This document shows, piece after piece, positions 1 through 64,000 of a stretch of 64,000 bases of DNA (positions within the stretch are counted from its first letter, which is position 1; each line of letters starts with the position of its first letter). The translations under genes were made by a program, and so were the position numbers. Origin of the DNA: a virus (lineage: Duplodnaviria; Heunggongvirae; Uroviricota; Caudoviricetes). The notes under the pieces are model-generated. The model saw only the letters and a list, made by a program, of their open reading frames with translations. It ran no database searches and was not told the origin of the DNA. Where the stretch lies: positions 64,001 to 128,000 of the IMG/VR virus record IMGVR_UViG_3300025853_000035; one strand, written 5' to 3'.

Positions 1-11
1 GAACCGCTCCC

Positions 12-92
12 TTAGAGGGATGAACTACAATACTGGCTCTGCCAGTGTAGTTGGGTCAGCGTAAGCTGATGCAAGGCGGTCGTTGTGAACAT
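12..92 (-). CDS. Leader peptide L3 (26 aa, MFTTTALHQLTLTQLHWQSQYCSSSL), putative attenuator peptide
   Basis: Hand-translated; ATG lies 7 nt after the TATACT -10 box (leaderless); 23 of 26 residues are T/L/H/Q/W/S/Y/C. Confidence 0.8.
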   Translation of the reverse strand: MFTTTALHQLTLTQLHWQSQYCSSSL

Positions 93-99
93 GGCGTGG

Positions 100-128
100 A
101 GTATATTCAAACTTTACAGTGATGTCAA
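100..128 (-). promoter_or_regulatory. sigma70-type promoter of the L3 operon
   Basis: TTGACA (128-123), 17-bp spacer, TATACT (105-100), T-rich upstream. Confidence 0.85.
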
Positions 129-159
129 ACAAAAAATGACATTAGGTTGAAAATAGTTC

Positions 160-237
160 TGGAACCCCGTGAGGGATTCGAACCCCCGACCCTGCCGGTA
201 GAAGCGGCGCGCTCTTGATCCGCTGAGCTAACGGGGT
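160..237 (-). tRNA. tRNA-Arg(TCT)
   Basis: Cloverleaf folded by hand; anticodon loop CTTCTAC, TTCGAAT T-loop, encoded CCA. Confidence 0.93.
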
Positions 238-245
238 GTGATGTC

Positions 246-319
246 TGGTGCCGAGTGCCGAATCGAACGGCCTCTCTCGCGTTTCAAACGAGCGCTTCGA
301 CCTGCAAAGCTTACTCGGC
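246..319 (-). tRNA. tRNA-Phe(GAA)
   Basis: GCCGAGT/ACTCGGC acceptor stem, loop TTGAAAC, TTCGATT T-loop, CCA; T-stem short. Confidence 0.82.
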
Positions 320-327
320 ATAGAGGG

Positions 328-408
328 TGGAGCCGCTGACAGGATTCGAACCTGCATTTGCATCCAGTTACCTTTCTCTCCGTTCGTAGCGGAGGGGGTT
401 ACAGCGGC
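328..408 (-). tRNA. Atypical D-armless tRNA-Arg(ACG)-like RNA
   Basis: Perfect 7-bp acceptor, CTCCG/CGGAG stem with loop CTACGAA, canonical T arm and CCA, no D arm, ~22-nt extra region. Confidence 0.7.
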
Positions 409-416
409 ATTGAAAC

Positions 417-494
417 TGGTCTCGCCGACGGGATTCGAACCCGCATTGACCTGCTTGAAAGGCAAGGTTCTTAGGCCATTTAGAAGACGGCGAG
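417..494 (-). tRNA. tRNA-Glu(TTC)
   Basis: Cloverleaf; loop CTTTCAA; CCA. Confidence 0.93.
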
Positions 495-495
495 A

Positions 496-570
496 TGGTA
501 GCGCATGGGGGAATCGAACCCCCGTCTCAGGCTTGAGAAGCCCGTGTCCTGTCCGCTAGACGAATGCGCC
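496..570 (-). tRNA. tRNA-Glu(CTC)
   Basis: Cloverleaf; loop TTCTCAA; CCA. Confidence 0.92.
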
Positions 571-577
571 ATGGAAA

Positions 578-653
578 TGGCGAGAACGACGGGGTTCGAA
601 CCCGCGACAACCAGATAGACAATCCGGTGCTCTACCAACTGAGCTACGTTCCC
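578..653 (-). tRNA. tRNA-Asp(GTC)
   Basis: Cloverleaf; loop TTGTCTA; CCA. Confidence 0.93.
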
Positions 654-659
654 ATATGC

Positions 660-735
660 TGGAGCAGACGGCGAGGATCGAACTCGCGCTGCCGGAGGGT
701 GGAAACCTCCCGCTCTACCGCTGAGCTACGCCTGC
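660..735 (-). tRNA. tRNA-Gly(TCC)
   Basis: Cloverleaf; loop TTTCCAC; CCA. Confidence 0.93.
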
Positions 736-748
736 ATTGCATAAAAAC

Positions 749-823
749 TGGAGCGGGCAACGGGGTTCGAACCCGTGTCTCTGGACTGGCAGACCAGTGC
801 TCTTCCTACTGAGCTATACCTGC
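749..823 (-). tRNA. tRNA-Gly(GCC)
   Basis: Cloverleaf; loop CTGCCAG; CCA. Confidence 0.93.
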
Positions 824-1200
824 ATTTGCCTTTTCTGATGAGGATACAATCGGCTGGTGTAACCCATTTCCGCGTATGTCTTCCGGCGGTGACAGTTCGC
901 GCACCGGACGACACACTTATTGATCTCCTCGATCAGTCGAGGTAACTTTGTTCCGTCTCTGACTGCCTTAGAGACATTGAACTCCTTGGTGGCCCGATCG
1001 ACATGATCAAACTCAAGGACGATTATGTCATCTTCCCCACAGTCTATGCACGGGTGCTTGCTGAGATAGTCGATAACGTATTCTTGCGCTAACTGCCTAC
1101 GAAGAGCTTGCGCCTCAGCGGTGACTTTCCGCATCTTGGCACCGTTCTCGGCATAGTAGTTTTTCGCATAGGCACGTTTCGCCTCATCATCCCAAGCCAA
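814..1200 (-). CDS. HNH endonuclease inside the tRNA operon
   Basis: CIDCGE...LEFDH...CANCH motifs; likely TTG start at 1200 after AAGGAG; the longer ORF-track N-terminus overlaps tRNA-Lys. Confidence 0.85.
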   Translation of the reverse strand: MAWDDEAKRAYAKNYYAENGAKMRKVTAEAQALRRQLAQEYVIDYLSKHPCIDCGEDDIIVLEFDHVDRATKEFNVSKAVRDGTKLPRLIEEINKCVVRCANCHRRKTYAEMGYTSRLYPHQKRQMQV

Positions 1201-1217
1201 GCTGTCTCCTTTGTGTT

Positions 1218-1293
1218 TGGTGAACCGGGTGGGCCACGATCCCACAACCTTCGGGTTAAAAGCCCACTGCTCTGCCAATTGAGCTACCGGTCC
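1218..1293 (-). tRNA. tRNA-Lys(TTT), non-canonical T-loop
   Basis: Cloverleaf; loop CTTTTAA; T-loop ATCGTGG; CCA. Confidence 0.88.
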
Positions 1294-1307
1294 AAAGACC
1301 GGGAACA

Positions 1308-1341
1308 ACGAAAAACGCCCCACCGGGGGCGGTAGGGCGTC
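1308..1341 (-). terminator. Intrinsic terminator inside the L1 operon (putative attenuator)
   Basis: 11-bp stem ACGCCCTACCG/CGGTGGGGCGT, CCCC loop, followed by TTTTCGTT. Confidence 0.8.
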
Positions 1342-1359
1342 TAAATATCGATGCTGATT

Positions 1360-1435
1360 TGGAGGATCGACTGGGGCTTGAACCCAGCACCTGCGGAGTA
1401 AGAATCCGCCGCTCTACCTACTGAGCTATCGATCC
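1360..1435 (-). tRNA. tRNA-Lys(CTT)
   Basis: Cloverleaf; loop TTCTTAC; CCA. Confidence 0.92.
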
Positions 1436-1471
1436 GCTAAAACAGCACCGATAGCTAGGAGCACTACCGGA

Positions 1472-1534
1472 TTAGAGGCTAAAACCTCGTTCGCCGCGTT
1501 CCCGGCGATCTCGTTTGAATCCGAAGCGTTCCAT
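1472..1534 (-). CDS. Leader peptide L1 (20 aa, MERFGFKRDRRERGERGFSL), putative attenuator peptide
   Basis: Hand-translated; residues 2-18 are all E/R/F/G/K/D, the amino acids of the ten downstream tRNAs; AGGA...GAG upstream. Confidence 0.85.
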   Translation of the reverse strand: MERFGFKRDRRERGERGFSL

Positions 1535-1584
1535 GGTAGGTCTCAAAAAATCCTGTGAGGCATAATTGCCGTGAATGAAGCCGA

Positions 1585-1613
1585 ACTATACACAGCGACA
1601 GTCTGGCTGTCAA
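1585..1613 (-). promoter_or_regulatory. sigma70-type promoter of the L1 operon
   Basis: TTGACA (1613-1608), 17 bp, TATAGT (1590-1585). Confidence 0.85.
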
Positions 1614-1653
1614 CAAGAAAATTCAGAAAGGCGAACTTTTTTTTCCGGCCCGG

Positions 1654-2175
1654 TCAGAACCAGCAGTCGTTGAAGCATTGCTCCGCGATCTCGCGGTGCG
1701 TGGGAAAGCACAGATCAGCGACCTGCTCATACTCAGTGAGGAGGCCGAACTCCATGTTCTCCGGGCACAGCCGAAGCCGCTCATAGTGCCCGGCGGTCAG
1801 CACCCATGGGTTACGGAATACCGCCATCGTCTGCGCGCCGCCCGCTACCGGATAGCTCTGCACATATTCGAGGCTGTCGGCGGTTATGGTCCGGCCGGTC
1901 TCTTCCAGCCACTCACGACAAGCGGCTTGTTCGAAGGACTCACCGCGATTGACATGCCCGCCCAAGAACGCCCAGCCGCCACGGTGAGGCTCGATCGCCC
2001 GCCGGGCCATGAGAAGACCGCGCCGGCCGATGCCGACGCGAACCCGCTGGAGAACGACGACGACACCGGTGGGACTTCCCCACGTCATCGCCGAGCAGCC
2101 GGGGCACTTCATGGGATACTCGTGATCCACATGAGCCGTCCCGCAGGTCGAACAGAACAAATCCATCACGCTCAC
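1654..2175 (-). CDS. NUDIX hydrolase with N-terminal zinc ribbon
   Basis: GGHVNRGESFEQAACREWLEETG Nudix box; CxxC...CxxC. Confidence 0.9.
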   Translation of the reverse strand: MSVMDLFCSTCGTAHVDHEYPMKCPGCSAMTWGSPTGVVVVLQRVRVGIGRRGLLMARRAIEPHRGGWAFLGGHVNRGESFEQAACREWLEETGRTITADSLEYVQSYPVAGGAQTMAVFRNPWVLTAGHYERLRLCPENMEFGLLTEYEQVADLCFPTHREIAEQCFNDCWF

Positions 2176-2552
2176 TTTCTATCGTCCTGCTGACGATGCA
2201 GCATCTCGCGGATCGCCGCGAGGTCGTTCTTGATCTGCTCCTGCTCAGCATGGGTGAACGCATCACTATCCACGATCAGCTTGGCCGACATGATTGCCGT
2301 CATCACGGGAAAGGCGAAGCCCGGCCCGAAGTGCATGAGGAAGATAGCCACCCCTCGGCCGACCACCGTGACGGGATACATATCGCCGTATCCTGTCGTG
2401 GTCGCGGTGGTGAAGGCCCACCACAAGGAATCGCCAATCCCATATTTGGCTTCGGCCAGATCAAACAGCCCGGCGGCGAGGACCACGACAATGCCGTAGA
2501 CGATCGCGACGGTCAGGAAGCTCCGGCCGAGGAGGTGGACTATCTTTCTCAT
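2172..2552 (-). CDS. Two-TM potassium channel (KcsA-like)
   Basis: TM helix - WWAFTTATTTGYGDMYP pore motif - TM helix - short coiled coil. Confidence 0.92.
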   Translation of the reverse strand: MRKIVHLLGRSFLTVAIVYGIVVVLAAGLFDLAEAKYGIGDSLWWAFTTATTTGYGDMYPVTVVGRGVAIFLMHFGPGFAFPVMTAIMSAKLIVDSDAFTHAEQEQIKNDLAAIREMLHRQQDDRK

Positions 2553-2806
2553 CCCAAACCTCGCTCGCTGAGAAGGATTTTCTGGACGGACTGACCCACC
2601 ACCGAAAGGCGGAAGGTCCGATAGCCGTTATCGCTGCGAGGCCCCTCCTCGACGAGCGCCGGCCGCCGCAGCGTGTCCTTGGTCAACCGGATCGCACAAG
2701 ACTCGCTGCACCCGAGGATGCAGAAGTTCTCGTCGAGGTTGATAACCGTCGAAATTTGGCTGCGCTTGAGGCGGCCGGCGATGGAGGCGGGCGAGACGGG
2801 GGCCAT
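2549..2806 (-). CDS. Hypothetical protein
   Basis: Tightly coupled to both flanking genes in the operon. Confidence 0.5.
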   Translation of the reverse strand: MAPVSPASIAGRLKRSQISTVINLDENFCILGCSESCAIRLTKDTLRRPALVEEGPRSDNGYRTFRLSVVGQSVQKILLSERGLG

Positions 2807-2810
2807 CGCG

Positions 2811-3614
2811 TCAGCCCCCGATCACATGCGGCACGAACTTTGCCGTGTTGCTCGTGATGAGGCCGTCCTCGCGGATGCCGATACCGCACGGCTCGCCATC
2901 AACGATCCAGCTACCGATCACCGGGAAGACGCCGGGCGCGGTTTCCGGGAGACGATACATCTCCTGATAGACGTGCCCTTCCTCGCCGTAGTCGCCGCCG
3001 GTGGCCGCCAGCACATCACGATCCACGATCTCGATGTTGGCTCCCTCACGAGCCAGCAGCGGCTTCTTGACATAGGAGCCGGTCGCCGGCTTCTCGAAGC
3101 TGCTGTGGAGCAGGAAGGGGTTGCCGGGATCGAGCTTGGAGAGCAGGGGCAGGATGCCCTTGTTGCTCCACATCATCTTCCAGATCGGCTCCAGCCAGAC
3201 CATCGTATCGACGCTGTTGAACACGGCGTCGGCGTAGTCCTCGTTGACCAGCCATTCCCACGGGTAGAGTTTGAACAGGGTCGTGATGACCTCTTCGTCC
3301 AAATCAACGAAGCGCCCATCAGCCGACAGACCGATGTCTTCGATGAGGATGACCTTCGAGCCGATACCGCCGGCTGCTGCGGTGTCCCGCAGATAGGCGG
3401 TCGTCACGGTGTCTTCACCGGCATCGTCGAAGAAATGCGTGAAGTGCATTTCGCCGTTGGGGAGGAAGGGGCGGATGTCCGCCCACTTGGTGACCAGATG
3501 CTCGTGGATGGAGTTGAACTGGTCGAGGTCCGGGAAGACCTGCTCCTTCCAGCGCCACTGGATCACCGAGGCTTCCAGCAGCGAGGTCGGGGTGTCGCAA
3601 TTGAACTCGAACAT
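2811..3614 (-). CDS. Glutathionylspermidine synthase-like ATP-grasp ligase (YgiC/YjfC family), C-terminal part
   Basis: EFNCDTPTSLLEA, FKLYPWEWL, LEPIWKMMWSNKGIL, KKPLLAREGANI, PVIGSWIV motifs; frame opens at the G6 tract 3670-3675. Confidence 0.88.
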   Translation of the reverse strand: MFEFNCDTPTSLLEASVIQWRWKEQVFPDLDQFNSIHEHLVTKWADIRPFLPNGEMHFTHFFDDAGEDTVTTAYLRDTAAAGGIGSKVILIEDIGLSADGRFVDLDEEVITTLFKLYPWEWLVNEDYADAVFNSVDTMVWLEPIWKMMWSNKGILPLLSKLDPGNPFLLHSSFEKPATGSYVKKPLLAREGANIEIVDRDVLAATGGDYGEEGHVYQEMYRLPETAPGVFPVIGSWIVDGEPCGIGIREDGLITSNTAKFVPHVIGG

Positions 3615-3633
3615 CTTGGGTTCGGTCCGGCCG

Positions 3634-3960
3634 TCATAACCGAAGTCGAACCGGCCGTAGTTGAGGGCAGGGGGGTTCCTGATCCCACGCCCGGCGGATG
3701 GCGGCGTGCGCCTTCTGCGGGATGCCCATCTTCGTCAGCCATTCCCCGCTCTTGTCCCCGACGATGACATCGCCGGCTGCAAGCAGGAGGTTGTAGACGC
3801 TGCGGGTGGCCTCATCGAACAGGTCGATCTCGCCCGGCGCGAAGGAATAATAGGTTCCCTCCCGCCAGTAGGGATCGACGCCGTCGGTGTGCCAGATCAG
3901 TCCGTCATCGGCGACGGCCTGCTGCCAGTTGAGGCGCTGGGCGACCTGCTTACGGATCAA
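3634..3960 (-). CDS. Glutathionylspermidine synthase-like ligase, N-terminal part (frameshifted)
   Basis: R.NWQQ...YWREGTYYSF N-terminus typical of the family; removing one C at GAACCCCCCT joins it to LNYGRFDFGYDG. Confidence 0.82.
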   Translation of the reverse strand: MIRKQVAQRLNWQQAVADDGLIWHTDGVDPYWREGTYYSFAPGEIDLFDEATRSVYNLLLAAGDVIVGDKSGEWLTKMGIPQKAHAAIRRAWDQEPPCPQLRPVRLRL

Positions 3961-4346
3961 CCGCCGACACTCCCGAATGCCGACTTACCGAAGCCGCCGC
4001 GCGAGACAGCCGCCGCACGGGTCACGGACGAGGAAGCCGGGGCGTGGAAGTAGGTGGCACCGGGCGTGCGAGCGAAGCTGCCGCCACGCACCGGATCGCC
4101 GTGATAGGGGACTGCGGCCGACTTGCCGAGGTAATACCACATGAAGGCGTTGCCGGCTCCGCCGCCACGGTTCTGCTGGCAATAGCTGTCAGGCACGCGG
4201 CGCTTGTTCTTGTCGGTGCAGACCGCCGTGTTGCGGTCGGAATAGACGTTGTAGGACTCGTCCCACTGGTTGGCCGGGCGGCCACAGGCGCTTACCGCCA
4301 ACGCTGCTGCCAGCGTGGTGGTCAGCAGAAAAGACTTCTTCCGCAT
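3957..4346 (-). CDS. Lipoprotein, YgiB/DUF1190-like partner of the ATP-grasp ligase
   Basis: Signal peptide with lipobox VSAC; Gly/Ser/Arg tail SRGGFGKS; sits directly upstream of the YgiC-like gene. Confidence 0.75.
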   Translation of the reverse strand: MRKKSFLLTTTLAAALAVSACGRPANQWDESYNVYSDRNTAVCTDKNKRRVPDSYCQQNRGGGAGNAFMWYYLGKSAAVPYHGDPVRGGSFARTPGATYFHAPASSSVTRAAAVSRGGFGKSAFGSVGG

Positions 4347-4417
4347 AGTGATTCCCTCTGAAATTGTGAGTGAATCGCTGATACTTTAGAGACGCATAAT
4401 GTCAAGTAAAAATGACT

Positions 4418-4450
4418 GTGCCGCGAAACCTCAAAGAGGCTCGCGGCACA
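4418..4450 (-). terminator. Hairpin closing the L2 tRNA operon
   Basis: TGTGCCGCGA/TCGCGGCACA inverted repeat right after tRNA-Ile. Confidence 0.55.
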
Positions 4451-4460
4451 TGGAAGGGTA

Positions 4461-4534
4461 TGGTTGTTCTGGGAAGAATCGAACTTCCATCTGCCGATTA
4501 TCAGTCGGATGCACTACCGTTGTGCTACAGAACA
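4461..4534 (-). tRNA. tRNA-Ile(GAT)
   Basis: Cloverleaf; loop CTGATAA; CCA. Confidence 0.92.
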
Positions 4535-4543
4535 TCAACCAAA

Positions 4544-4621
4544 TGGCTGGCGTAGCTGGATTCGAACCAGCCTCAATCTCGGTTAACAGCCGAGCGCCTT
4601 CACCTAGAAGACTATACGCCA
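4544..4621 (-). tRNA. tRNA-Asn(GTT)
   Basis: Cloverleaf; loop CTGTTAA; CCA. Confidence 0.9.
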
Positions 4622-4628
4622 ATGAAAC

Positions 4629-4704
4629 TGGTGGAACAGGAGGGGATCGAACCCTCTACCTCCGGGGTGCAAAGCCGACGCTCTCCCAAGTGAGCTACTG
4701 CCCC
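4629..4704 (-). tRNA. tRNA-Ala(TGC)
   Basis: Cloverleaf; loop TTTGCAC; G3:U70 pair; CCA. Confidence 0.93.
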
Positions 4705-4816
4705 ATAAATCTGAGGGTCGGAAGGTTCCCTACTCCGCCGCCGAAGCGTGCGTAAGGGTCAAGGTTATCTCCCGGTTGCCTCTGCTCGCCAATGTTGTCC
4801 CGAGCAGACCCAAAAC

Positions 4817-4892
4817 TGGTGCTTCGTGTAGGTCCTGACCCTACGGCCTTCCGCATGTCATACGGATGCTCTACCAACTGAGCTAACGAAGC
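4817..4892 (-). tRNA. tRNA-Val(GAC), non-canonical T-loop
   Basis: Cloverleaf; loop ATGACAT; T-loop GTCAGGA; CCA. Confidence 0.85.
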
Positions 4893-4901
4893 ATATTCGG
4901 T

Positions 4902-4976
4902 TGGTGCTCGATGGAGGGACTGATCCTCCGGCCTCCGGCATGTGAAACCAGCGCTCTACCATTAAGCTAATCGAGC
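4902..4976 (-). tRNA. tRNA-Val(CAC), non-canonical T-loop
   Basis: Cloverleaf; loop TTCACAT; T-loop ATCAGTC; CCA. Confidence 0.85.
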
Positions 4977-4986
4977 ATGTTGAAAC

Positions 4987-5057
4987 TGGTAGCAGTGAGA
5001 GGATGTGCGCCTCTGGGTAGCAGGCTTATGAGGCCCGCCCCGAACTGATCCACTGCT
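4987..5057 (-). tRNA. Atypical tRNA with CAT anticodon (Met or Ile2), no D stem
   Basis: AGCAGTG/CACTGCT acceptor; GCGGGC/GCCTGC stem with loop CTCATAA; AGAGG/CCTCT T-stem with loop CGCACAT; CCA. Confidence 0.68.
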
Positions 5058-5064
5058 ATGAAAC

Positions 5065-5141
5065 TGGTCTAGCTGGCAGGATTTGAACCTGCGACCTCAC
5101 CCGTCCGAGGGGCACACGCTACCAGACTGCGCTACAGCTAG
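5065..5141 (-). tRNA. tRNA-Pro(CGG)
   Basis: Cloverleaf; loop CTCGGAC; CCA. Confidence 0.92.
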
Positions 5142-5147
5142 ATGAAA

Positions 5148-5223
5148 TGGTCAAGGTGGCCGGGATCGAACCGACGACTTCCTGCTCCCAAAGCAGGCGC
5201 TCTACCAACTGAGCTACACCGAG
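5148..5223 (-). tRNA. tRNA-Pro(TGG)
   Basis: Cloverleaf; loop TTTGGGA; two acceptor-stem mismatches; CCA. Confidence 0.85.
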
Positions 5224-5255
5224 AAACGAAAAAGGGCCGCTTTCGCGACCCTTTC
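5224..5255 (-). terminator. Intrinsic terminator between leader L2 and the first tRNA (putative attenuator)
   Basis: 10-bp stem AAAGGGTCGC/GCGGCCCTTT, GAAA tetraloop, TTTTTCGTTT tail. Confidence 0.85.
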
Positions 5256-5286
5256 GAAAAATCCCTTATGAGACGAGACGACCGGG

Positions 5287-5379
5287 TCAGTCGTCCTTCG
5301 TCGGGAGCGCGCACGCAATCACGGCCGGGACCATATTGGCCGGCGCTGCGATCATGTTGATGGCGGGAATGTTGCGCAT
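5287..5379 (-). CDS. Leader peptide L2 (30 aa, MRNIPAINMIAAPANMVPAVIACALPTKDD), putative attenuator peptide
   Basis: Hand-translated; residues 3-22 are all N/I/P/A/M/V, the amino acids of the eight downstream tRNAs; AGGA...GAG upstream. Confidence 0.87.
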   Translation of the reverse strand: MRNIPAINMIAAPANMVPAVIACALPTKDD

Positions 5380-5428
5380 GGGAAGCTCGTGAAATCCTGA
5401 AAAGCGGAGAACCGCTGTTGAAGTCCGA

Positions 5429-5457
5429 ATGATAATTGAAACTTGACTGGATGTCAA
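5429..5457 (-). promoter_or_regulatory. sigma70-type promoter of the L2 operon
   Basis: TTGACA (5457-5452), 17 bp, TATCAT (5434-5429). Confidence 0.85.
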
Positions 5458-5479
5458 GAGAAAAATTACACTGGCTATG

Positions 5480-6490
5480 AAGACACTGAACCTCGCGAAT
5501 ACGCGGGTTAGGTCGCATGTCGGGTAGTTCCGTCGGTCAACGGCTCAGCATCTACAAAGCGAGTGAAATTGTGGTCGGCTTGCTGGCACCAATCCAGAAG
5601 ACAGGTCCGCAGACCTGACCAACCAACCACGGTGATGAATATAGACAGGCTGAGACTACACCCGTTGCGATCTGTCGTTCGGAGGATTACGGAACCCTTG
5701 CGAGGCACCTTGCCACCTTATCCACCAAGCCCTCTTGCGAGTAGCCCGGTCCCAGATCAACGCCGCCTATTTTTCCCGATTCTCACGGGGCCGCTGGCAT
5801 TAGCGGCGACACTGCATGATATTCGGCGATTCCCAGACCGTTGACGTGTTACCGCCATTAAGCCCCCGCGACGGGGCAACGAACTTTCTTTCACCAACCA
5901 CTCTTCGCTTTGCCGGCTAGGAGCAGACCGCATTGGGCGAACCCTGCGGTATTAGGCGTCTTTCACATACAGTCGAAGCAATCTTTGCGTTTTGATATGA
6001 ACTGCTGGGTTCGAACCAGCGATCCACGGATTAAGAGTCCGTTGCTTTACCACTAAGCTAAGTTTGCAAGCCACCGAGACGAGCTACCTCCTAGTTCCAC
6101 TGATGTTTCCACCTGCGGAATGCTAGTCGCCTCATGTCCGTCATGTCGCTAAACACTACCAAGACCGTCGAGCAGGACCTTCACCCTACCAAACTGATCA
6201 TTGCTCTTGACCGCTAAGTCTTGAACTGATGACCTTGTGCTTTATCATCCGCTGCCGCAGGTTAGACACAAGCTCCGGGTTCTACTCCGGCGTTCGAGGT
6301 CACCGATCTGGCTCTCCTCTATCCCCTCAAGGGCCTTGTCCTGCTAACAGCCTAGCTCCCGTTACCAGAAGCGATCCTCGCGGACCTGACTGCACTTGCT
6401 TGAATTGACCGGCAAGCCGGCGGAGTTATGTGGCCATACCTCCTTTACGTTGGTTACCCAACGCTATCCCCCTCAAGCGGGGTGTTCCTG
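5480..6490 (-). ncRNA. Large structured non-coding RNA candidate (GOLLD-like), boundaries approximate
   Basis: ~1 kb with no credible ORF, own promoter, many hairpins, embedded tRNA-like fold, next to tRNA operons. Confidence 0.6.
5993..6067 (-). tRNA. tRNA-Lys(CTT)-like element embedded in the large RNA
   Basis: Canonical D arm, ACGGA/TCCGT stem with loop CTCTTAA and TTCGAAC T-loop, but mismatched acceptor stem ending TCA instead of CCA. Confidence 0.7.
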
Positions 6491-6492
6491 AG

Positions 6493-6521
6493 CCTCTAAC
6501 AACTGATTCGAGCAATGTCAA
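6493..6521 (-). promoter_or_regulatory. Putative promoter of the large RNA
   Basis: TTGACA (6521-6516), 17 bp, TAGAGG. Confidence 0.55.
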
Positions 6522-6529
6522 GTCATAAT

Positions 6530-6772
6530 TGCAAGAGGCAATCCAAAACTTACCGCGTGACAGCCTCACTTGCGCTGGGATGGCCTCCCGATTAGGGGCC
6601 GGCGATCTCGGAGCTTCCTCCGTTCTACCCGCCCTTTACTCGGAGCGTATCCATACCAGACCGGCCAGTGCTTTCGTTCATGTCCAAGTTCGACACTACT
6701 TGTCCGCAAAGTGACTCCGGCTGAGTCTGCCCCTCGGTAAATCTTGGAGCGTTCCGCATCGCTGCGGTGTGA
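6530..6772 (-). ncRNA. Candidate ~240-nt structured RNA
   Basis: Follows TTGACA(6806-6801)-17-TAGATG(6783-6778); multiple hairpins; no credible ORF. Confidence 0.4.
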
Positions 6773-6836
6773 AAGGGCATCTACATTCACAATTGCAGTA
6801 TGTCAATTAAAAAATGCAGTGCCCTCAAAAAAAAAG

Positions 6837-7007
6837 TTAGGCCGCTTCCCGAACCTGCTTCACGGCGCTCTTGTCGATGGTCTGGGGCGCATAGTCAGTC
6901 TCGGCCTCGCGCACGGTCAGGTTGAAGCCGTTGATCGCGAGCACGTCGAACCACGTCGCATCATCCAGTTTGTTGAAAGCCACCTGCTGGCCAACCTCGG
7001 GGTCCAT
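6837..7007 (-). CDS. Small hypothetical protein (56 aa, MDPEVGQQVAFNKLDDATWF...)
   Basis: Hand-translated; strong AAGGAG RBS; below the ORF-track cutoff. Confidence 0.7.
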   Translation of the reverse strand: MDPEVGQQVAFNKLDDATWFDVLAINGFNLTVREAETDYAPQTIDKSAVKQVREAA

Positions 7008-7071
7008 CTGTTTCTCCTTCTCGTTCAGGGTGGGAGGGAAGGGCGGCCTCGGTGAGGAGGCCGCCTGCCTT

Positions 7072-7581
7072 TCAGGACTTGTTGGCGAGTTCCGCCAGCG
7101 CCTCGTCGCCGCGCCAGATACGCAGGCCGGGGACTACCTCTCCGCCGGGCGTGACCGCCTCGAAGGTCTTACGCGACCAGAACAGGCACTTATGGCGCTT
7201 GCGGGCGGCGGCCAGACGGCCTTCGGCACGATCGCTGATGGGGATGAAGAAGGACGGACCCATGATCTTGCCGTCAGCGGTCTTGGTGGCCGGGGTAAGC
7301 TGGTCGAACGGATACTCTTCCGGCAGGCGCTTGCGGCCGGACTTGCCGGTCTCCATCTCCAGCACGGAGATCAGGACCTGCTTGGTGCCGCCGATCGTGC
7401 CATCGAGATCGGCAGTAGCCGTGCCAGCGCCCTGACGGACCGGAGCTTCGCTGATCTCAGCAGCCGCCGACTGGCGGGGAGCACGAGGCGTGCGCTTCGG
7501 GGCGGTCGGCTGTGGAGCGGCAACCACTTCGGAGGCGGCTGCGGTTCGGTTACGTCGGGTGGCGGTTGCTGCTTCGGTCAT
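7072..7581 (-). CDS. Hypothetical protein, possibly DNA-binding
   Basis: Ala/Arg/Pro low-complexity N-terminus, folded C-terminus with YPFDQL...SFFIP; AAGGAG RBS. Confidence 0.75.
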   Translation of the reverse strand: MTEAATATRRNRTAAASEVVAAPQPTAPKRTPRAPRQSAAAEISEAPVRQGAGTATADLDGTIGGTKQVLISVLEMETGKSGRKRLPEEYPFDQLTPATKTADGKIMGPSFFIPISDRAEGRLAAARKRHKCLFWSRKTFEAVTPGGEVVPGLRIWRGDEALAELANKS

Positions 7582-7653
7582 GCTGAATGTCTCCTTGTTT
7601 TCGGTGTTGATTCGTCTCTAAGTTAGTTCCATGACTTTCGTCAAGGAAAAAGT

Positions 7654-8280
7654 TCAGAGCGCTCCGACCAAGCTCCGCGCGTCGTCAGACACTTCGATAT
7701 ACTGTTCGGTCGTCTCAATGCTCGCGTGGCCCATCAACCGCTGAACGTCACGCAACGAACAGTGGTGGTGGTTCGCGCTCCGGGCAAGTGTGGTCCCGAA
7801 GGTGCGTCGTCCAGAGTGAGTGGACGCGCCCTCGAAGCCGCCGGACTGGATCAGGCGGTTGTAATAGGCACGCAGTGCTGTGGGGGACATCGCCTTGTGG
7901 GCGGCATGGGCAGGGATCGCTTCCCCGCGCTCCAGCTTCCAGCGCCATGGCTGTGCTGAGATCGCAACAACATCCGCCGAGGGATACGCCTTGCGGAACG
8001 CTTGCAGGCATTCCTTGACAAGGCCGTTCATGGGGACGGTGCGTTCGCGCCGCCCCTTGCCCACGTCGGAGAAGATGTTGATGTCTTTGGCGATGGTGCC
8101 GGTGGTGGTGAGCATCGCGGCGATCTTGATCTTGGCGATCTCGCCTACGCGCAGACCAGCCTTGAACGACAGGGCGACGATCAGGCGATCGCGGACCGGC
8201 ATCGGGCTGTTTTCGGTGACGTGCTTGAGCAGCTTCTGGAACTGCTTCTCGTCGAAAGTCTTTGCTCGCTTCTTTGCCAT
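7654..8280 (-). CDS. Tyrosine recombinase (catalytic domain only)
   Basis: GLRVGEI (R), HSGRR (HxxR), MGH and TTEQY catalytic motifs; start MAKKRAK with RBS. Confidence 0.92.
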   Translation of the reverse strand: MAKKRAKTFDEKQFQKLLKHVTENSPMPVRDRLIVALSFKAGLRVGEIAKIKIAAMLTTTGTIAKDINIFSDVGKGRRERTVPMNGLVKECLQAFRKAYPSADVVAISAQPWRWKLERGEAIPAHAAHKAMSPTALRAYYNRLIQSGGFEGASTHSGRRTFGTTLARSANHHHCSLRDVQRLMGHASIETTEQYIEVSDDARSLVGAL

Positions 8281-8365
8281 TGTCTGTCTCCATGTGATTG
8301 ACGAATCGCTGGATAAGGCGATTCGCAACCGGAGTCAATATCAATGGAAGAAGTGATGGAGTCCG

Positions 8366-8770
8366 TCAGTGGATGAACGGGAAGGGCGGGGTAGGGCGAT
8401 CGCGCGCCAGATGGTCGAGGTGCCAGTTGATCCGCTGCACGGACAGGATGAGATGGGAGACCTCGGCGTTGAACTCGACGATGTCGATGTGGCCGTGGTC
8501 ATACATGCGGTGGGCGAAGTCGATCTTGAGCAAGGCGACCTGCTTGACCGCCTCAACCATGTCCACGTCCTTGCACTGCGTCACATAAGTGAAGTCGTAG
8601 AACTGGTCGAAGTCGATCTCTTCCATCCCGAAAACCTCGGTGACATACATGAAGCGATCGATGTTGCAGGCCCCATCAGGGCCGTTAGGGCGCGGGTCGG
8701 AAACCAGTTCGGTAGCAATTTCTTCAATCGTGCGCTGCACGCTTTTCTCCATGGCAACGGCACCGGTCAT
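8366..8770 (-). CDS. Hypothetical protein
   Basis: Natural composition and phage-like codon usage. Confidence 0.6.
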   Translation of the reverse strand: MTGAVAMEKSVQRTIEEIATELVSDPRPNGPDGACNIDRFMYVTEVFGMEEIDFDQFYDFTYVTQCKDVDMVEAVKQVALLKIDFAHRMYDHGHIDIVEFNAEVSHLILSVQRINWHLDHLARDRPTPPFPFIH

Positions 8771-8896
8771 ATTCCGGGTCCGTGTCGTCGATCAGTGCAT
8801 CCTGCCACGACGGACAGAAATGCAGGGTGGGGTTCAGGAAACTGCATTCAGGAGGGATCACGCCCTCCCGCTCGATGGTGTTGCAGGCGTTGGGGC

Positions 8897-9124
8897 TTAG
8901 TCCTCGTGGCATTCGTCGCTGATCCTGATTCCATGGACGGGGCAGTCCTGATGGAAGCGCATCTGACTCTTCCAGCGCCATTTCTGGCGCTTCTCGTCGT
9001 AGATGCGGTTCAGGACATCGATGCGTTTGTTCTCGGGGACCTTGCCTTGGCACAGGCAATCCTCCGGCTCCCACTCGGTTTGGAGTGGTCTGGAGCTTAT
9101 GACCCTTCCGGTCACTTTTTTCAT
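8897..9124 (-). CDS. Small Cys-containing hypothetical protein
   Basis: MKKVTG start; CLC...DCPVHG. Confidence 0.5.
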   Translation of the reverse strand: MKKVTGRVISSRPLQTEWEPEDCLCQGKVPENKRIDVLNRIYDEKRQKWRWKSQMRFHQDCPVHGIRISDECHED

Positions 9125-9204
9125 CGGGCCATTAGGGACAGTCACAATTGCACTATAGCCATTTTGGCTTGACATTGCAAGCGAAATCACATAGCTGCGG
9201 CACC

Positions 9205-9378
9205 ATGCAATCACTTTCCAATGATTCCCTGAACGCGCACTTCGCCGCGATCGAAGAGGGGATGACCGACGCCGGCAAGGCGAAGAGCGTTGAGACTGTC
9301 CGCCTGATGCAAATGCTGCGGGACCGGGCGGCGCAAGGCGGTTTCCGCAACCAGCCGATCATACTGCACCGCCCATGA
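9205..9378 (+). CDS. Small hypothetical protein
   Basis: Follows a TTGACA box at ~9169; stop overlaps the helicase ATG. Confidence 0.55.
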   Translation: MQSLSNDSLNAHFAAIEEGMTDAGKAKSVETVRLMQMLRDRAAQGGFRNQPIILHRP

Positions 9379-11180
9379 AGCTCACATTCTCCGAGGGGCG
9401 CTACATCGTCACCTCGCGCGAGAGCCGGTGGGGCGAACTGCGCGACGCGGGCTTCGTCTTCCACCGGGCCGGGCGCTACTATCACACGACGGACTGGCGC
9501 AAGGCGGCCGATTATATCGACTACGCCGATGACGACACCTACGCCGATCTGGACGCCAAGCTCACCGAGCTAGAGGCGGCGATGGCGCTGTCCTATTCGA
9601 TGGAAGCACAGGCGGACATCACGCGACCACACATCGTCAACCACAAGGGTGAAGTCCTCGACTATCTCCCCTACCAGAAGGCCGGCATCCTCTACGCCAG
9701 CGAGCGCGATGACACGCTGATCGCAGACAGTCCGGGCCTCGGCAAGACGATTCAGGCCATCGGGATCATCAACCATCTCGGCCTCGTGTCGGGTGTCATC
9801 GTCTGCCCGGCGACCTTGAAGCTGAACTGGCTCAAGGAGATGACCAAGTGGTTGGCCGACAAATCGCTGACCGTCGGCGTGGCCTATGGCGACGACATCC
9901 CCGACACCGACTTCGTCATCATCAACTACGACATCCTGAATCGTAATCGGGACGCGCTGTGGGCTGAGCATTGGGACATCCTCGTCTGCGACGAAGCGCA
10001 GTATCTCTCGAACGGTGAGTCCAAGCGGACGCAGGCAATCTTCGGCGTCTACAAGATGGATTGGAGCACCAAGAAGGTCACCCGCGTTCCCCAGCGCATC
10101 AAGCAGCGCGTGTCTGGCCGCGTCGAGAAGGTTCCGTGCCTGCGTGCCGAGAGGCGCGTGATGCTGACCGGCACCCCGATGATGAAGAAGCCCAAGGACA
10201 TGTGGACCATGATCCGGGACTTCGACCCGCACGGGCTGGGCGCAAGCTGGGACGATTTCGCCTTCACCTATTGCGACGCGGTGATGACCGGCTTCGGCTT
10301 GCAGGCTGACGGCGGCTCCAACCTGACCGAACTCAACGAGCTTCTGCGCCGGGCGTTCATGATCCGGCGCTTGAAGAAGAACGTGCTCAAGGACCTGCCG
10401 GAGAAGACGCGCGAGATCGTGATCTTCCCGCAGGAGGGCTTGAAGAAGAAGATCAAGACCGAGCGCGACAAGTTCACCGATGCCTTCGCCATGCTCGACG
10501 CCGCTAACGACGGCGTCGTCTACAAGCCAAAGGAGGTGCTGGCAGAGGCGGACCCGGCCTACATCCTCGACTGCATGACCCGAATCCTGCCGCAAGGCTT
10601 CGATGCGGAGGAGATCGACGATCTGGACGGCGGCGAACTGCTGCCGGGCTTTGCTGCCTATTCCGAAGCGCGCCACGATCTGGCGCTGTCCAAGGTGCCG
10701 ATGGCGGCCGAGCATATCAAGCGCCTCGTGGAGACTGGCGAGAAGGTCATCGTGTTCGCCATCCACAAGGACGTGATCGCCGCGCTACATCAGGAGTTCC
10801 CGACGGCGGCCCGCATCATCGGCGGCCTCGGGGCCAAGAAGGTCGAGGCGGAGAAGCTGAGGTTCCAAGGTGACAACGACAATGCGATCGAGCCGGACCC
10901 GGACTGCAACGTCATCCTCTGCAACCTCAAGGCCGGCGGCGTCGGGCACACCCTGACCGAGGCGACGATCGTTGTCTTCGTCGAGATGTGGTCGGTCCCC
11001 GGCGACATGGAGCAGTGCGAGGACCGGGCGCATCGCATCGGTCTGGAGCACAACGTCCTGATCCAGTTCCTCGTCGTGGACGGGACGATGGACGCCCTGA
11101 CCATCCAGACCCTGATCGATCGCATCGCCATGATTCAGGAAGGCGTCGATGGCGTCGAGCCTGAACGAAAGGTCGCGTGA
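9375..11180 (+). CDS. SNF2/SWI2-family helicase (HARP-like)
   Basis: ADSPGLGKT, CDEAQYL, LTGTP, QCEDRAHRIG motifs. Confidence 0.93.
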   Translation: MKLTFSEGRYIVTSRESRWGELRDAGFVFHRAGRYYHTTDWRKAADYIDYADDDTYADLDAKLTELEAAMALSYSMEAQADITRPHIVNHKGEVLDYLPYQKAGILYASERDDTLIADSPGLGKTIQAIGIINHLGLVSGVIVCPATLKLNWLKEMTKWLADKSLTVGVAYGDDIPDTDFVIINYDILNRNRDALWAEHWDILVCDEAQYLSNGESKRTQAIFGVYKMDWSTKKVTRVPQRIKQRVSGRVEKVPCLRAERRVMLTGTPMMKKPKDMWTMIRDFDPHGLGASWDDFAFTYCDAVMTGFGLQADGGSNLTELNELLRRAFMIRRLKKNVLKDLPEKTREIVIFPQEGLKKKIKTERDKFTDAFAMLDAANDGVVYKPKEVLAEADPAYILDCMTRILPQGFDAEEIDDLDGGELLPGFAAYSEARHDLALSKVPMAAEHIKRLVETGEKVIVFAIHKDVIAALHQEFPTAARIIGGLGAKKVEAEKLRFQGDNDNAIEPDPDCNVILCNLKAGGVGHTLTEATIVVFVEMWSVPGDMEQCEDRAHRIGLEHNVLIQFLVVDGTMDALTIQTLIDRIAMIQEGVDGVEPERKVA

Positions 11181-11353
11181 TGCTGATCACCACCCTTGAG
11201 GAACAGCGCCGGGCAGGGCGGGCGGCCCGCGCCGCCGGTGGATACGACAAACTCATCGAACTGGCCGCCAAGCGCGAGACGGAGCAGCAAAAGCTAAAAA
11301 TCGTCCGTCAGCAAAAGCGAAAAATCGTCCGCCTCCCAAAGAAAACCAGATGA
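11180..11353 (+). CDS. Small basic hypothetical protein (57 aa)
   Basis: Hand-translated; coupled to the helicase stop. Confidence 0.55.
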   Translation: MLITTLEEQRRAGRAARAAGGYDKLIELAAKRETEQQKLKIVRQQKRKIVRLPKKTR

Positions 11354-11363
11354 AGGAAACAGC

Positions 11364-11543
11364 ATGAGCATGTTTGTTGAATGCGGCCAGTGTGGCTGGC
11401 TCGGCCCGGTCGCTGATCTGCAAGACCATCCCACCCGGCCGCTGCCGGACGATCTCGGCTTCTGCCCGGAGTGCGAATGCGAGATCGACGAATGGCCGTT
11501 CGACGAAGCTGAGAAGGACCGCCGGCTCGCCGAGTATGAGTGA
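11364..11543 (+). CDS. Small zinc-ribbon protein (59 aa)
   Basis: Hand-translated; ECGQCGW...FCPECE; AAGGA RBS. Confidence 0.65.
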   Translation: MSMFVECGQCGWLGPVADLQDHPTRPLPDDLGFCPECECEIDEWPFDEAEKDRRLAEYE

Positions 11544-12246
11544 GCCGTATCCCTATCCCACCAAAATCCACTGGTATGCCGGCATGGCTTTTCACCTTGA
11601 TGGCCGCATCACCTATTACACGGAGAAAGACTTGAACGCCTACACTCCACTCGAACGTCGCGAATACCTCATGGACATCCTGATGCAGGTGATCGGTAAG
11701 AAGATCGATCCGAACGATCTCATCGACCGTCTCGAAGAACACATGTCCGAGGCTGACCGCATCGAAATCTCTCAACTGGCTTTCGAGCACGATCTCATCA
11801 CGCTCGACAGCGAGGGAGACGTGATCCCTATGTCATCACTCACAGGTGGGCGGGCATACACGATCCGCACGCCTCTGCCCGAAGCGACGTGGGAACGACT
11901 CCCCACGGCCGGCACGCCGATGGCCCTGACGCCCGGTGGCCATCACGCCCATTACGACTACGAGGTCAAGTCGTGGCCTTGGTTCTTCGAGCCGATGTGC
12001 GCTGGCAAGAAGAAGCACGACATGCGGGACAAGACCGAGCGGCCATATCGGGTCGGCGACCGGATGCTACTTCGCGAATTTGATCCTCGCGGCGCTGGCT
12101 ACACCGGCCGGGAAGCGGTGGCGATGATCACCTACATCACGAGCAACGATACGCCGTGCGCGATGTCGTCGAACGCCTTGGACAAGAGCGCCTGCATCCT
12201 GTCCGTGAACGTGATGGAGCTTGGCGACACGGATCGGAACGCGTGA
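11536..12246 (+). CDS. Protein with C-terminal ASCH/DUF3850 domain
   Basis: KSWPWFFEPMCAGKKKHDMR...YRVGDRMLLREF. Confidence 0.8.
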   Translation: MSEPYPYPTKIHWYAGMAFHLDGRITYYTEKDLNAYTPLERREYLMDILMQVIGKKIDPNDLIDRLEEHMSEADRIEISQLAFEHDLITLDSEGDVIPMSSLTGGRAYTIRTPLPEATWERLPTAGTPMALTPGGHHAHYDYEVKSWPWFFEPMCAGKKKHDMRDKTERPYRVGDRMLLREFDPRGAGYTGREAVAMITYITSNDTPCAMSSNALDKSACILSVNVMELGDTDRNA

Positions 12247-63362: not shown

Positions 63363-63757
63363 TCGTCGGCCTCGGCCTTGGCGGCTTCGAAGGCCGCGTC
63401 ATTGGAGGCCATGCGGATGATCAGGGCGAAGAAGCCTTCCAGCTTCTTGTCGCTGAACAGCGCCTTGGCGTTATCGACGGTGAAGGCGATGTCTTCCTTG
63501 CCGCCGCGATCCTTGATGCCGGTCCAGCCCTTGACGATGTGTTCGGCATAGAAGCGGACGTTGAGCGCCTTGTTCTCTTCCTCGGTCAGCTTGCCGCCGG
63601 CATTGAGGCGCGGGCTGTAAGGCTCCATCATGCGCTCAAAAGCGCGCCGGGCCTTTTCGCCGCCCATCGGCAGCAGCGTGATCGAAGCCGTGTCGCTCAG
63701 CGGGAACGTCTTCGGGGTGTCTTCGAGGTTACGCTCAAATGCTTCGTAAATATCCAT
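63353..63757 (-). CDS. Tail assembly chaperone (gpG-like)
   Basis: Upstream of the tape measure gene; IVKGWTGI; ends G GGA AAC TGA. Confidence 0.85.
   Translation of the reverse strand: MDIYEAFERNLEDTPKTFPLSDTASITLLPMGGEKARRAFERMMEPYSPRLNAGGKLTEEENKALNVRFYAEHIVKGWTGIKDRGGKEDIAFTVDNAKALFSDKKLEGFFALIIRMASNDAAFEAAKAEADEGN
63356..63362 (-). promoter_or_regulatory. Programmed -1 frameshift site G GGA AAC
   Basis: X XXY YYZ heptamer immediately before the chaperone stop. Confidence 0.82.
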
Positions 63758-64000
63758 GTCGGGTATTCATCCTTGTCGGGGAGGGGTGGGGACGGCCTCC
63801 CGACAAGGCCGCCCCCGTTTCGCCAGCGAAAATTGATGTCGGGAAAGCTGGTAAGGCGGAGGTCGGCTCCGCCAATTCGGTGGGGGCGGTCAGCCGCCGG
63901 GAAGTTCTTCGGGGAGGTGGTCAGCCACCGGGAACGTCTTCAATGAAGGCGCTCCCGGCATCCTCTCGGAGGATCAGCCGCGCCATTACAGCGCGGTGAT

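Follow-up and report, generated by a model that had tools for sequence, protein, structure and literature searches.

Three leader ORFs sharing out the twenty amino acids precede the tRNA operons of a Lacusarx-like phage and probably belong to multivalent attenuators

Why should a phage place, at the head of each of its transfer RNA (tRNA) operons, a short open reading frame (ORF) built of the very amino acids that the downstream tRNAs carry? This question is raised by a stretch of 64,000 nucleotides (nt), hereafter the window, which corresponds to positions 64001-128000 of one 151,382-bp contig (IMG/VR record IMGVR_UViG_3300025853_000035). Its source is a ~151-kb Lacusarx-like phage of sphingomonads. 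Our answer is that the three ORFs, named L1, L2 and L3, are probably the leader peptides of three multivalent transcription attenuators following the classical logic, each gating one tRNA operon. It is built on what is observed in these genomes, namely the ORFs, the match of their composition to the tRNAs, their conservation, the terminators, and a complementarity accompanied by covariation.

All 17 tRNAs detected by ARAGORN in the window lie on the minus strand. A promoter scan returned exactly three 11/12 matches to a sigma70-type promoter, also on the minus strand, and each of them precedes a short ORF and then a tRNA operon. The tRNAs of operon 3 lie to the left of the window and were read on the whole contig. 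An earlier note, made from the sequence alone, had proposed that every sigma70-type promoter of the tRNA region heads a leader: this is right for the three 11/12 sites, but not for a site TTGACA...TATCAG (~4405-4377, found by eye) that precedes the 4346-3957 gene. The existence of three promoter-leader-tRNA operon units is confirmed, and all three ORFs read identically to the sequences given in that note. The elements of these units are the following.

128-100, minus strand: promoter P3, TTGACA-17-TATACT, 11/12 match
92-12, minus strand: leader ORF L3, 26 codons, MFTTTALHQLTLTQLHWQSQYCSSSL, 23/25 residues in T/L/H/Q/W/S/Y/C
1613-1585, minus strand: promoter P1, TTGACA-17-TATAGT, 11/12 match, kept in relatives
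1534-1472, minus strand: leader ORF L1, 20 codons, MERFGFKRDRRERGERGFSL, 17/19 residues in E/R/F/G/K/D
1360-1435, minus strand: tRNA-Lys(CUU), first tRNA of operon 1, between the candidate antiterminator strand and the terminator
160-1293, minus strand: distal part of operon 1, with Lys(UUU), Gly(GCC), Gly(UCC), Asp, Glu(CUC), Glu(UUC), Arg(ACG)-like, Phe and Arg(UCU)
5457-5429, minus strand: promoter P2, TTGACA-17-TATCAT, 11/12 match
5379-5287, minus strand: leader ORF L2, 30 codons, MRNIPAINMIAAPANMVPAVIACALPTKDD, 22/29 residues in N/I/P/A/M/V
4461-5223, minus strand: tRNAs of operon 2, Pro(UGG), Pro(CGG), an odd CAU tRNA, Val(CAC), Val(GAC), Ala, Asn and Ile

Every member of the amino acid set of an operon is present in the matching leader (6/6 for L1, 6/6 for L2 and 8/8 for L3), and the unbroken runs of in-set residues reach 17, 20 and 20 codons, respectively. 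Short ORFs are abundant in this genome, where 924 ATG ORFs of 18-35 amino acids (aa) were counted on both strands, and those of a GC-rich intergenic region might resemble tRNA sets by chance. The probability of such runs, which the earlier note had proposed to compute, was estimated with these 924 ORFs as the pool. Each leader came first of the 924, its own in-set fraction and its own run length being reached by that leader alone, with binomial p values in the 1e-6 to 1e-8 range (L1, 1.6e-7; L2, 2.3e-6; L3, 1.3e-8). The product of the three p values is ~5e-21, and the feature is kept across ~10 divergent homologs and in a second group of phages described below. Composition statistics and conservation in homologs together refute a chance origin, to which we leave practically no weight.

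Each leader fits its own operon alone. In the leader-by-operon matrix of in-set fractions, the diagonal values are 0.89, 0.76 and 0.92 for L1, L2 and L3, and all values off the diagonal are ≤0.14. L3 moreover allowed a prediction outside the window, since the earlier note, blind to that part of the contig, had expected its operon to hold Thr, Leu, His, Gln, Trp, Ser, Tyr and Cys tRNAs, and had staked its reading on them. Downstream of L3, ARAGORN found Ser(CGA), Leu(CAG), Leu(GAG), Leu(CAA), Thr(CGU), His, Gln(CUG), Gln(UUG), Ser(GCU), Cys and Trp on the whole contig. In the gap after Ser(CGA), at genome positions 63740-63826, lies a further class-II tRNA whose anticodon loop reads CU-GUA-AC (by eye) and which folds into a clean cloverleaf (z = -3.6); from this loop and cloverleaf we assign it as tRNA-Tyr(GUA). 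All eight predicted amino acids are thus found in operon 3, so that the 20 amino acids are shared out 6+6+8 among the three operons with no overlap, as had been claimed.

The tRNA-Tyr(GUA), which has an odd T loop (AUCGAUA), is one of three non-canonical tRNAs missed by ARAGORN. The other two are the Arg(ACG)-like tRNA at 328-408, whose D arm is nearly absent and whose extra region is long (Rfam tRNA model, 32.8 bits), and the CAU tRNA at ~4984-5058, which has a minimal form. Acceptor and anticodon arms fold intact in all three. Between tRNA-Lys(UUU) and tRNA-Gly(GCC) of operon 1 lies an ORF with the look of an HNH homing endonuclease (~830-1215, minus strand; CxxC...HxxD...CxxCH). It has no Pfam match, and relatives have no such insert at this place.

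Conservation was then analysed. The closest records are the Erythrobacter phages XM05 and vB_EliS-L02 and the Sphingobium phage Lacusarx; further relatives were drawn from IMG/VR by means of an HslV-like neighbour gene and the leader DNA motif. The succession of promoter, leader and tRNA operon is found three times, in a common order, in XM05, vB_EliS-L02, Lacusarx and the IMG/VR contigs, operon 2 of Lacusarx being the exception. The earlier note would have given up its reading had the leaders not been conserved; they are kept as ORFs of set composition in ~10 distinct relatives each. Nine to ten distinct versions were obtained per leader, with core blocks that are 100% in-set. The L1 core is KRDRRE..ERGF (100% in-set in 9 distinct homologs), the L2 core in relatives is (I/M)NNPA.PAIMVP.. 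(entirely in-set), and the L3 core consists of L..LT.T.L followed by a W/C/H/Y/Q/S block (entirely in-set in 10 distinct homologs). In the variable columns of L3, 52/58 distinct residues remain in-set, and phages differ in how they order W, C, H, Y and Q, the set being unchanged.

Whether leader composition follows tRNA gain and loss, another expectation of the earlier note, could be judged with little power within the Lacusarx-like group, because the tRNA partition barely varies there. Among its members, relative L016 has gained Thr(UGU) and Arg(UCU) in operon 2 and its leader holds T, T and R, with the caveat that the leader Arg codon is CGU and that positions 2-3 are out-of-set in other leaders too. 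A further hint is the UUA codon found in L008-type leaders, relative L008 carrying a tRNA-Leu(UAA). The expectation fared better with the more distant CbK-like phages of Caulobacter and Brevundimonas, which have analogous leaders matching their own, different partition of the amino acids. CcrRogue gp349 (45 aa) has 33/44 residues in P/T/K/L/H/A and precedes Pro, Pro, Thr, Lys, Lys, Leu x3, His and Ala tRNAs. In Bajun, a leader MTSYRQNVQNIRVVRFNR... (core YRQNVQNIRVVRFNR) is followed by a terminator, and then by Tyr, Val, Ile, Val, Gln, Asn and Arg tRNAs; its CcrRogue counterpart has fewer N and more F, and the operon there begins with a tRNA-Phe. CcrRogue and Bajun each have at least one leader with an intrinsic terminator before the tRNAs, and two CbK-like leader ORFs, CcrRogue gp349 and BAJUN_02440, are annotated as hypothetical proteins. 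The CbK-like leaders are the best evidence that leader composition follows operon content.

These comparisons also bear on whether the short ORFs might be functional micropeptides, or be conserved as RNA structure alone, their likeness to the tRNA sets being incidental. The cores are indeed kept as sequence too (KRDRREG.ERGF; NNPA.PAIMVP), and much of each ORF lies inside conserved hairpins. This explanation does not account for three independent leaders that each fit their own operon alone, for a third tRNA set that was predicted blind and came true, for L3 residues whose order changes among phages at constant set, or for CbK-like phages in which other partitions go with other, matching leaders. 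On the composition statistics and the shuffled order of L3 residues, we reject the micropeptide reading, and consider the whole explanation very improbable.

An attenuator leader requires a usable start. The positions of ATG and stop are kept in ~10 homologs per leader. For L3, the -10 hexamer of P3 ends 7 nt before the ATG, with the same spacing in every homolog, and 36 nt separate the start of the -35 hexamer from the ATG in each of the four named phages, which implies that L3 would be translated from a leaderless messenger RNA (mRNA). The 5' untranslated regions (UTRs) of L1 (1536-1580, minus strand) and L2 (5381-5425, minus strand) have in common a small hairpin directly after the predicted transcription start, a conserved AGGAUUU ~18 nt before the ATG and a GAG ~10 nt before it, the latter two motifs being kept in relatives. 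Folding z-scores of the whole leaders are modest (L3, -3.3; L1, -1.1; L2, -2.3). All three ORFs contain hairpins: L3 holds two, the second of which keeps its pairing in relatives via UGGCA/UGCCA swaps; that of L2 covers the PANMVP codons; that of L1 is kept in relatives and is a candidate pause or region-1:2 element.

If the leaders control transcription, a terminator should stand between them and the tRNAs. Terminators were mapped in seven phages and were at the same places in 7/7, the operon 2 terminator changing in sequence and keeping its structure. The earlier note had placed strong terminators before most tRNAs of the L1 and L2 operons, and a hairpin at each leader stop; both were found, as listed here with the other structural elements.

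1342-1310, minus strand: strong intrinsic terminator of operon 1, after the first of ten tRNAs, stem of ~-20 kcal/mol followed by UUUUUCG
5255-5228, minus strand: strong intrinsic terminator of operon 2, between the L2 stop and the first tRNA-Pro, ahead of all operon 2 tRNAs
~63844-63872 in genome coordinates, minus strand: strong terminator of operon 3, after tRNA-Ser(CGA), the first operon 3 tRNA
1491-1508, minus strand: hairpin inside L1, UCGCCG...CGGCGA
1470-1448, minus strand: hairpin H3 of operon 1, abutting the L1 stop, weak, with a U-rich tail
5262-5306, minus strand: hairpin S of operon 2, whose 5' arm is formed by the last L2 codons, with the UGA stop in its loop, then UUUUU
Window positions 1-11 (5' arm) and on to ~63986 in genome coordinates, minus strand: hairpin Hc of operon 3, following the L3 stop, GGGAGCGG...CCGCUCCC

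Operon 1 is therefore made of the leader, a weak hairpin with a U-rich tail, tRNA-Lys(CUU), a strong terminator and the other tRNAs. The plan of operon 2 is simpler, with leader, strong terminator and tRNAs. In operon 3, the leaderless leader is followed by a GC hairpin without U tract, tRNA-Ser(CGA/UGA), a strong terminator, tRNA-Tyr and the others.

An attenuator also needs an alternative to the terminator. The RNA just past the leader stop codon nearly duplicates the 3' arm of the terminator in operons 1 and 3, as exemplified in operon 1 by relative L008 (post-stop CCGGUAGUGCGU versus terminator CCGGUAGGGCGU) and in operon 3 by the loop CUGACGC(G) versus CUGGCGCU. Being such a near copy, this post-stop RNA is complementary to the terminator 5' arm and can pair with it. 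This pairing amounts to -15 to -19 kcal/mol, and its empirical p is ≤0.024 in 11/14 of the operon 1 and operon 3 cases.

In operon 1, the near copy is the 5' arm of H3 (~1470-1461), which makes it a candidate antiterminator strand. Downstream of the stop, positions +0 to +13 form a duplex of -15 to -18 kcal/mol with the terminator 5' arm in 5/7 phages (p 0.005-0.011); in relative L016 the pairing is -12.9 kcal/mol (p=0.07). When operon 1 was folded without the terminator 3' arm, a long helix between the flanks formed around the cloverleaf of tRNA-Lys in 7/7 phages. This flank helix begins 1-2 nt past the leader stop and includes the terminator 5' arm, paired with +0 to +12 after the stop. Eleven operon 1 sequences gave an alifold consensus with 18 flank pairs, of which 7 are invariant and 7 show compensatory double changes, and two of these compensatory pairs fall in the stretch overlapping the terminator arm.

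In operon 3, the stem of Hc covaries, and its 8-nt loop holds CUGACGC, identical in 10/10 homologs. This loop faces a complementary GCGUCAG in 8/10 operon 3 terminators, and GCGUCAU in the phage studied here, where the duplex reaches -17.2 kcal/mol (p=0.005); the contact is pseudoknot-like. For operon 2, five relatives show a trp-like layout (1:2 / 2:3 / 3:4): the best partner of their terminator arm is UUAUGGUCCCGGUCG, which makes up the 3' half of the conserved in-ORF hairpin (-16.7 to -19.3 kcal/mol). Operon 2 has diverged in the window, where the loop of hairpin S is the best partner of the arm. A stop-codon hairpin is found in all operon 2 homologs, with differing sequences. A conserved strong terminator for each leader, and a strand at or next to the stop that is complementary to the terminator 5' arm, are in keeping with the attenuator reading. 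For the window, we predict a switch that is strongest in operon 3 and weaker in operon 1, the operon 2 pairing not exceeding chance.

The proposed mechanism would be as follows. Host RNA polymerase would start at the consensus promoter and transcribe an ORF of 20-30 codons built of the amino acids of the downstream tRNAs. It would then meet a strong intrinsic terminator, directly after the leader in operon 2, and after one embedded tRNA in operon 1 (Lys-CUU) and operon 3 (Ser-CGA). The strand beside the leader stop could pair with the terminator 5' arm, through a long helix around the embedded tRNA (operon 1) or through a hairpin loop (operon 3). With all aminoacyl-tRNAs of the group plentiful, the ribosome would reach the stop codon and mask this strand, the terminator would form, and the rest of the operon would stay unmade. 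A shortage of, or damage to, any tRNA of the group would stall the ribosome upstream, and the free strand would capture the terminator arm, allowing read-through into the tRNAs. Each third of the tRNA set would thus be supplied on demand and in a self-limiting manner. That the leaders are translated, that the switch works in this direction, and that its physiological trigger ties read-through to the supply of charged tRNAs, is what we infer from these sequences.

Several observations weigh against such attenuators. Some concern the pairings: taken alone, the operon 1 pairing of this window (-11.7 kcal/mol, p=0.12) is not above chance, nor is that between the loop of hairpin S (CUGACCC) and the terminator 5' arm of operon 2 (-10 to -12 kcal/mol; -10.1, p=0.10). 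The operon 3 loop has its core (+11 to +17) just where the footprint of a terminating ribosome ends. Others concern the leaders. L1 and L2 have no good Shine-Dalgarno sequence, the purine motifs upstream being weak; the operon 3 leaders of several relatives contain a Gly codon, and operon 3 has no Gly tRNA; and Lacusarx lacks the operon 2 leader, no N/I/P/A/M/V-rich ORF being found within 1.1 kb upstream of its tRNA-Pro. Leader codons are, besides, not enriched for those decoded by the phage's own tRNAs. The match between leaders and operons put forward in the earlier note stands at the amino acid level but not at the codon level, where 51/62 in-set codons are readable by the operon's own tRNAs versus 49.9 expected from phage codon usage. 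On this count, a sensor tuned to phage anticodons is unsupported. The leaders exceed the expected synonymous diversity by a small margin (52 distinct codons versus 47 +/- 2.3, P=0.02), and the use of rarer codons gave P=0.056.

Timing is a further difficulty. The terminators of operons 1 and 3 lie ~130-150 nt past the stop codon, a distance that would oblige the ribosome to remain in place, or others to follow it, for seconds. In equilibrium folding, the terminators prevail wherever the ribosome is modelled: with a ribosome footprint at every L2 codon in six phages, the terminator probability was 0.65-0.96 throughout, which makes this test uninformative, and any switch must consequently be kinetic.

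In Lacusarx, a promoter-like site and a terminator-like hairpin are present before tRNA-Pro(CGG), at coordinates 7680-8007 of the tRNA strand.

A rival reading is that the leaders are translated sensors with another output, be it a processing stem, with translation setting tRNA maturation or RNA stability, a reversed logic, or an involvement of Rho. The operon 1 flank helix encloses a complete tRNA, as the processing stems of ribosomal RNA (rRNA) enclose rRNA, and even in the full RNA it is more stable than the terminator in 5/7 relatives, so that an untranslated RNA would read through. In operon 2 of the window, a stop-codon hairpin is followed by UUUUU; a terminating ribosome would melt this hairpin, a reversed effect of the pyrBI kind. 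Equilibrium folding, being independent of ribosome position, also agrees with another output. On the other side, the outer strand of the flank helix is the terminator 5' arm, so that helix and terminator are mutually exclusive and cannot both form, and operon 2 of five relatives has the textbook layout described above. A reversed logic, for its part, would raise tRNA output when tRNAs are plentiful, which has no evident use. We regard another output as unlikely, though it is the alternative to which we give the most weight, and classical attenuation as the probable reading.

How would such attenuators compare with known systems? The closest known kind is the multivalent attenuators of enterobacteria (ilvGMEDA, with Leu/Val/Ile; thr, with Thr/Ile; also trp, his, leu and pheA). 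Like these, the phage units have a promoter-proximal ORF (14-32 codons) rich in the relevant amino acids, out-of-set residues only at the ORF ends, a downstream intrinsic terminator, a 1:2 / 2:3 / 3:4 arrangement (in operon 2 of relatives) and, here as a prediction, an alternative pairing that depends on ribosome position. Unlike them, they are encoded by a phage and would have tRNAs as their only targets, whereas all described members control biosynthesis or synthetase genes. Moreover, 6-8 amino acids would be sampled per leader and 20 across the three, one leader is predicted to lie on a leaderless mRNA, and two operons have a whole tRNA built into the putative switch, with a long-range helix or a loop contact as candidate antiterminator. 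The tRNA-gene target, the breadth of 6-8 amino acids, the leaderless version and the switch-embedded tRNA are new with respect to known attenuators.

In E. coli pheST, with its pheM leader, leader-peptide attenuation adjusts a translation component to the level of charged tRNA; the operon encodes the synthetase of one amino acid rather than tRNAs, and is not a phage element. T-box riboswitches likewise sense tRNA status and control terminator read-through upstream of translation-related genes, but bind the uncharged tRNA directly and do not need translation. An Rfam search at E≤1 over window positions 1-12000 returned no T-box (RF00230) and no known leader family. The operon 1 helix resembles the processing stems of rRNA operons, which are RNase III substrates, in being a long helix of 5' and 3' flanks, here around tRNA-Lys(CUU); it differs from them in that its outer strand doubles as terminator 5' arm and that it starts 1-2 nt past a stop codon. 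In full-text literature searches, no description of attenuation or of leader-peptide control was found for the tRNA genes of phages, and the papers on Lacusarx and vB_EliS-L02 do not mention the leaders.

A broader proposal is that large tRNA-bearing phages run a general tRNA-demand regulon, in which a few multivalent leaders would share the whole code, each switching on its own block of replacement tRNAs once decoding of any amino acid in the block becomes slow. To this generalization we give even credence.

Other genes and RNAs surround the tRNA operons. Just upstream of P2 is a GOLLD-like RNA (5647-6133, minus strand; Rfam RF02032, 140 bits against a gathering score of 150, E 9e-38), with a tRNA-Lys(CUU)-like module embedded at 5994-6068. 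Between operons 2 and 1 lie a minimal K+ channel of 126 aa (2172-2552, minus strand; Ion_trans_2, TTGYGD filter) and a NUDIX hydrolase with an N-terminal zinc-ribbon-like motif (1654-2175, minus strand). A glutathionylspermidine-synthase-like gene (2811-3960, minus strand) occupies two ORFs, 3960-3634 and 3614-2811, which match positions 1-84 and 102-371 of the Pfam profile; the split near 3615-3635 reflects either a frameshift, an assembly error or a pseudogene. A permuted transfer-messenger RNA of the two-piece, alphaproteobacterial type (Rfam RF04321, 79.6 bits) lies downstream of the tRNA cluster, at genome positions 58055-58370 (minus strand; L001 55-370).

Phage tRNA clusters are usually treated as constitutive supplements to codon usage. 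If the present proposal is true, decoding speed would feed back directly on tRNA supply, and attenuation, a textbook mechanism, would extend to a new class of target genes, as the first attenuation control of tRNA genes. The equality of leader composition and operon content would also provide a sequence-only rule for finding such switches, many of these leader ORFs being unannotated or labelled hypothetical protein, as is CcrRogue gp349. Cultured relatives (XM05, vB_EliS-L02, Lacusarx and the CbK-like Caulobacter phages) bring the proposal within reach of the bench. The proposal also makes testable the idea of a phage response to tRNA loss through host shut-off or anticodon nucleases. If the proposal holds, the phage could detect and repair, group by group, the depletion or cleavage of host tRNAs during infection.

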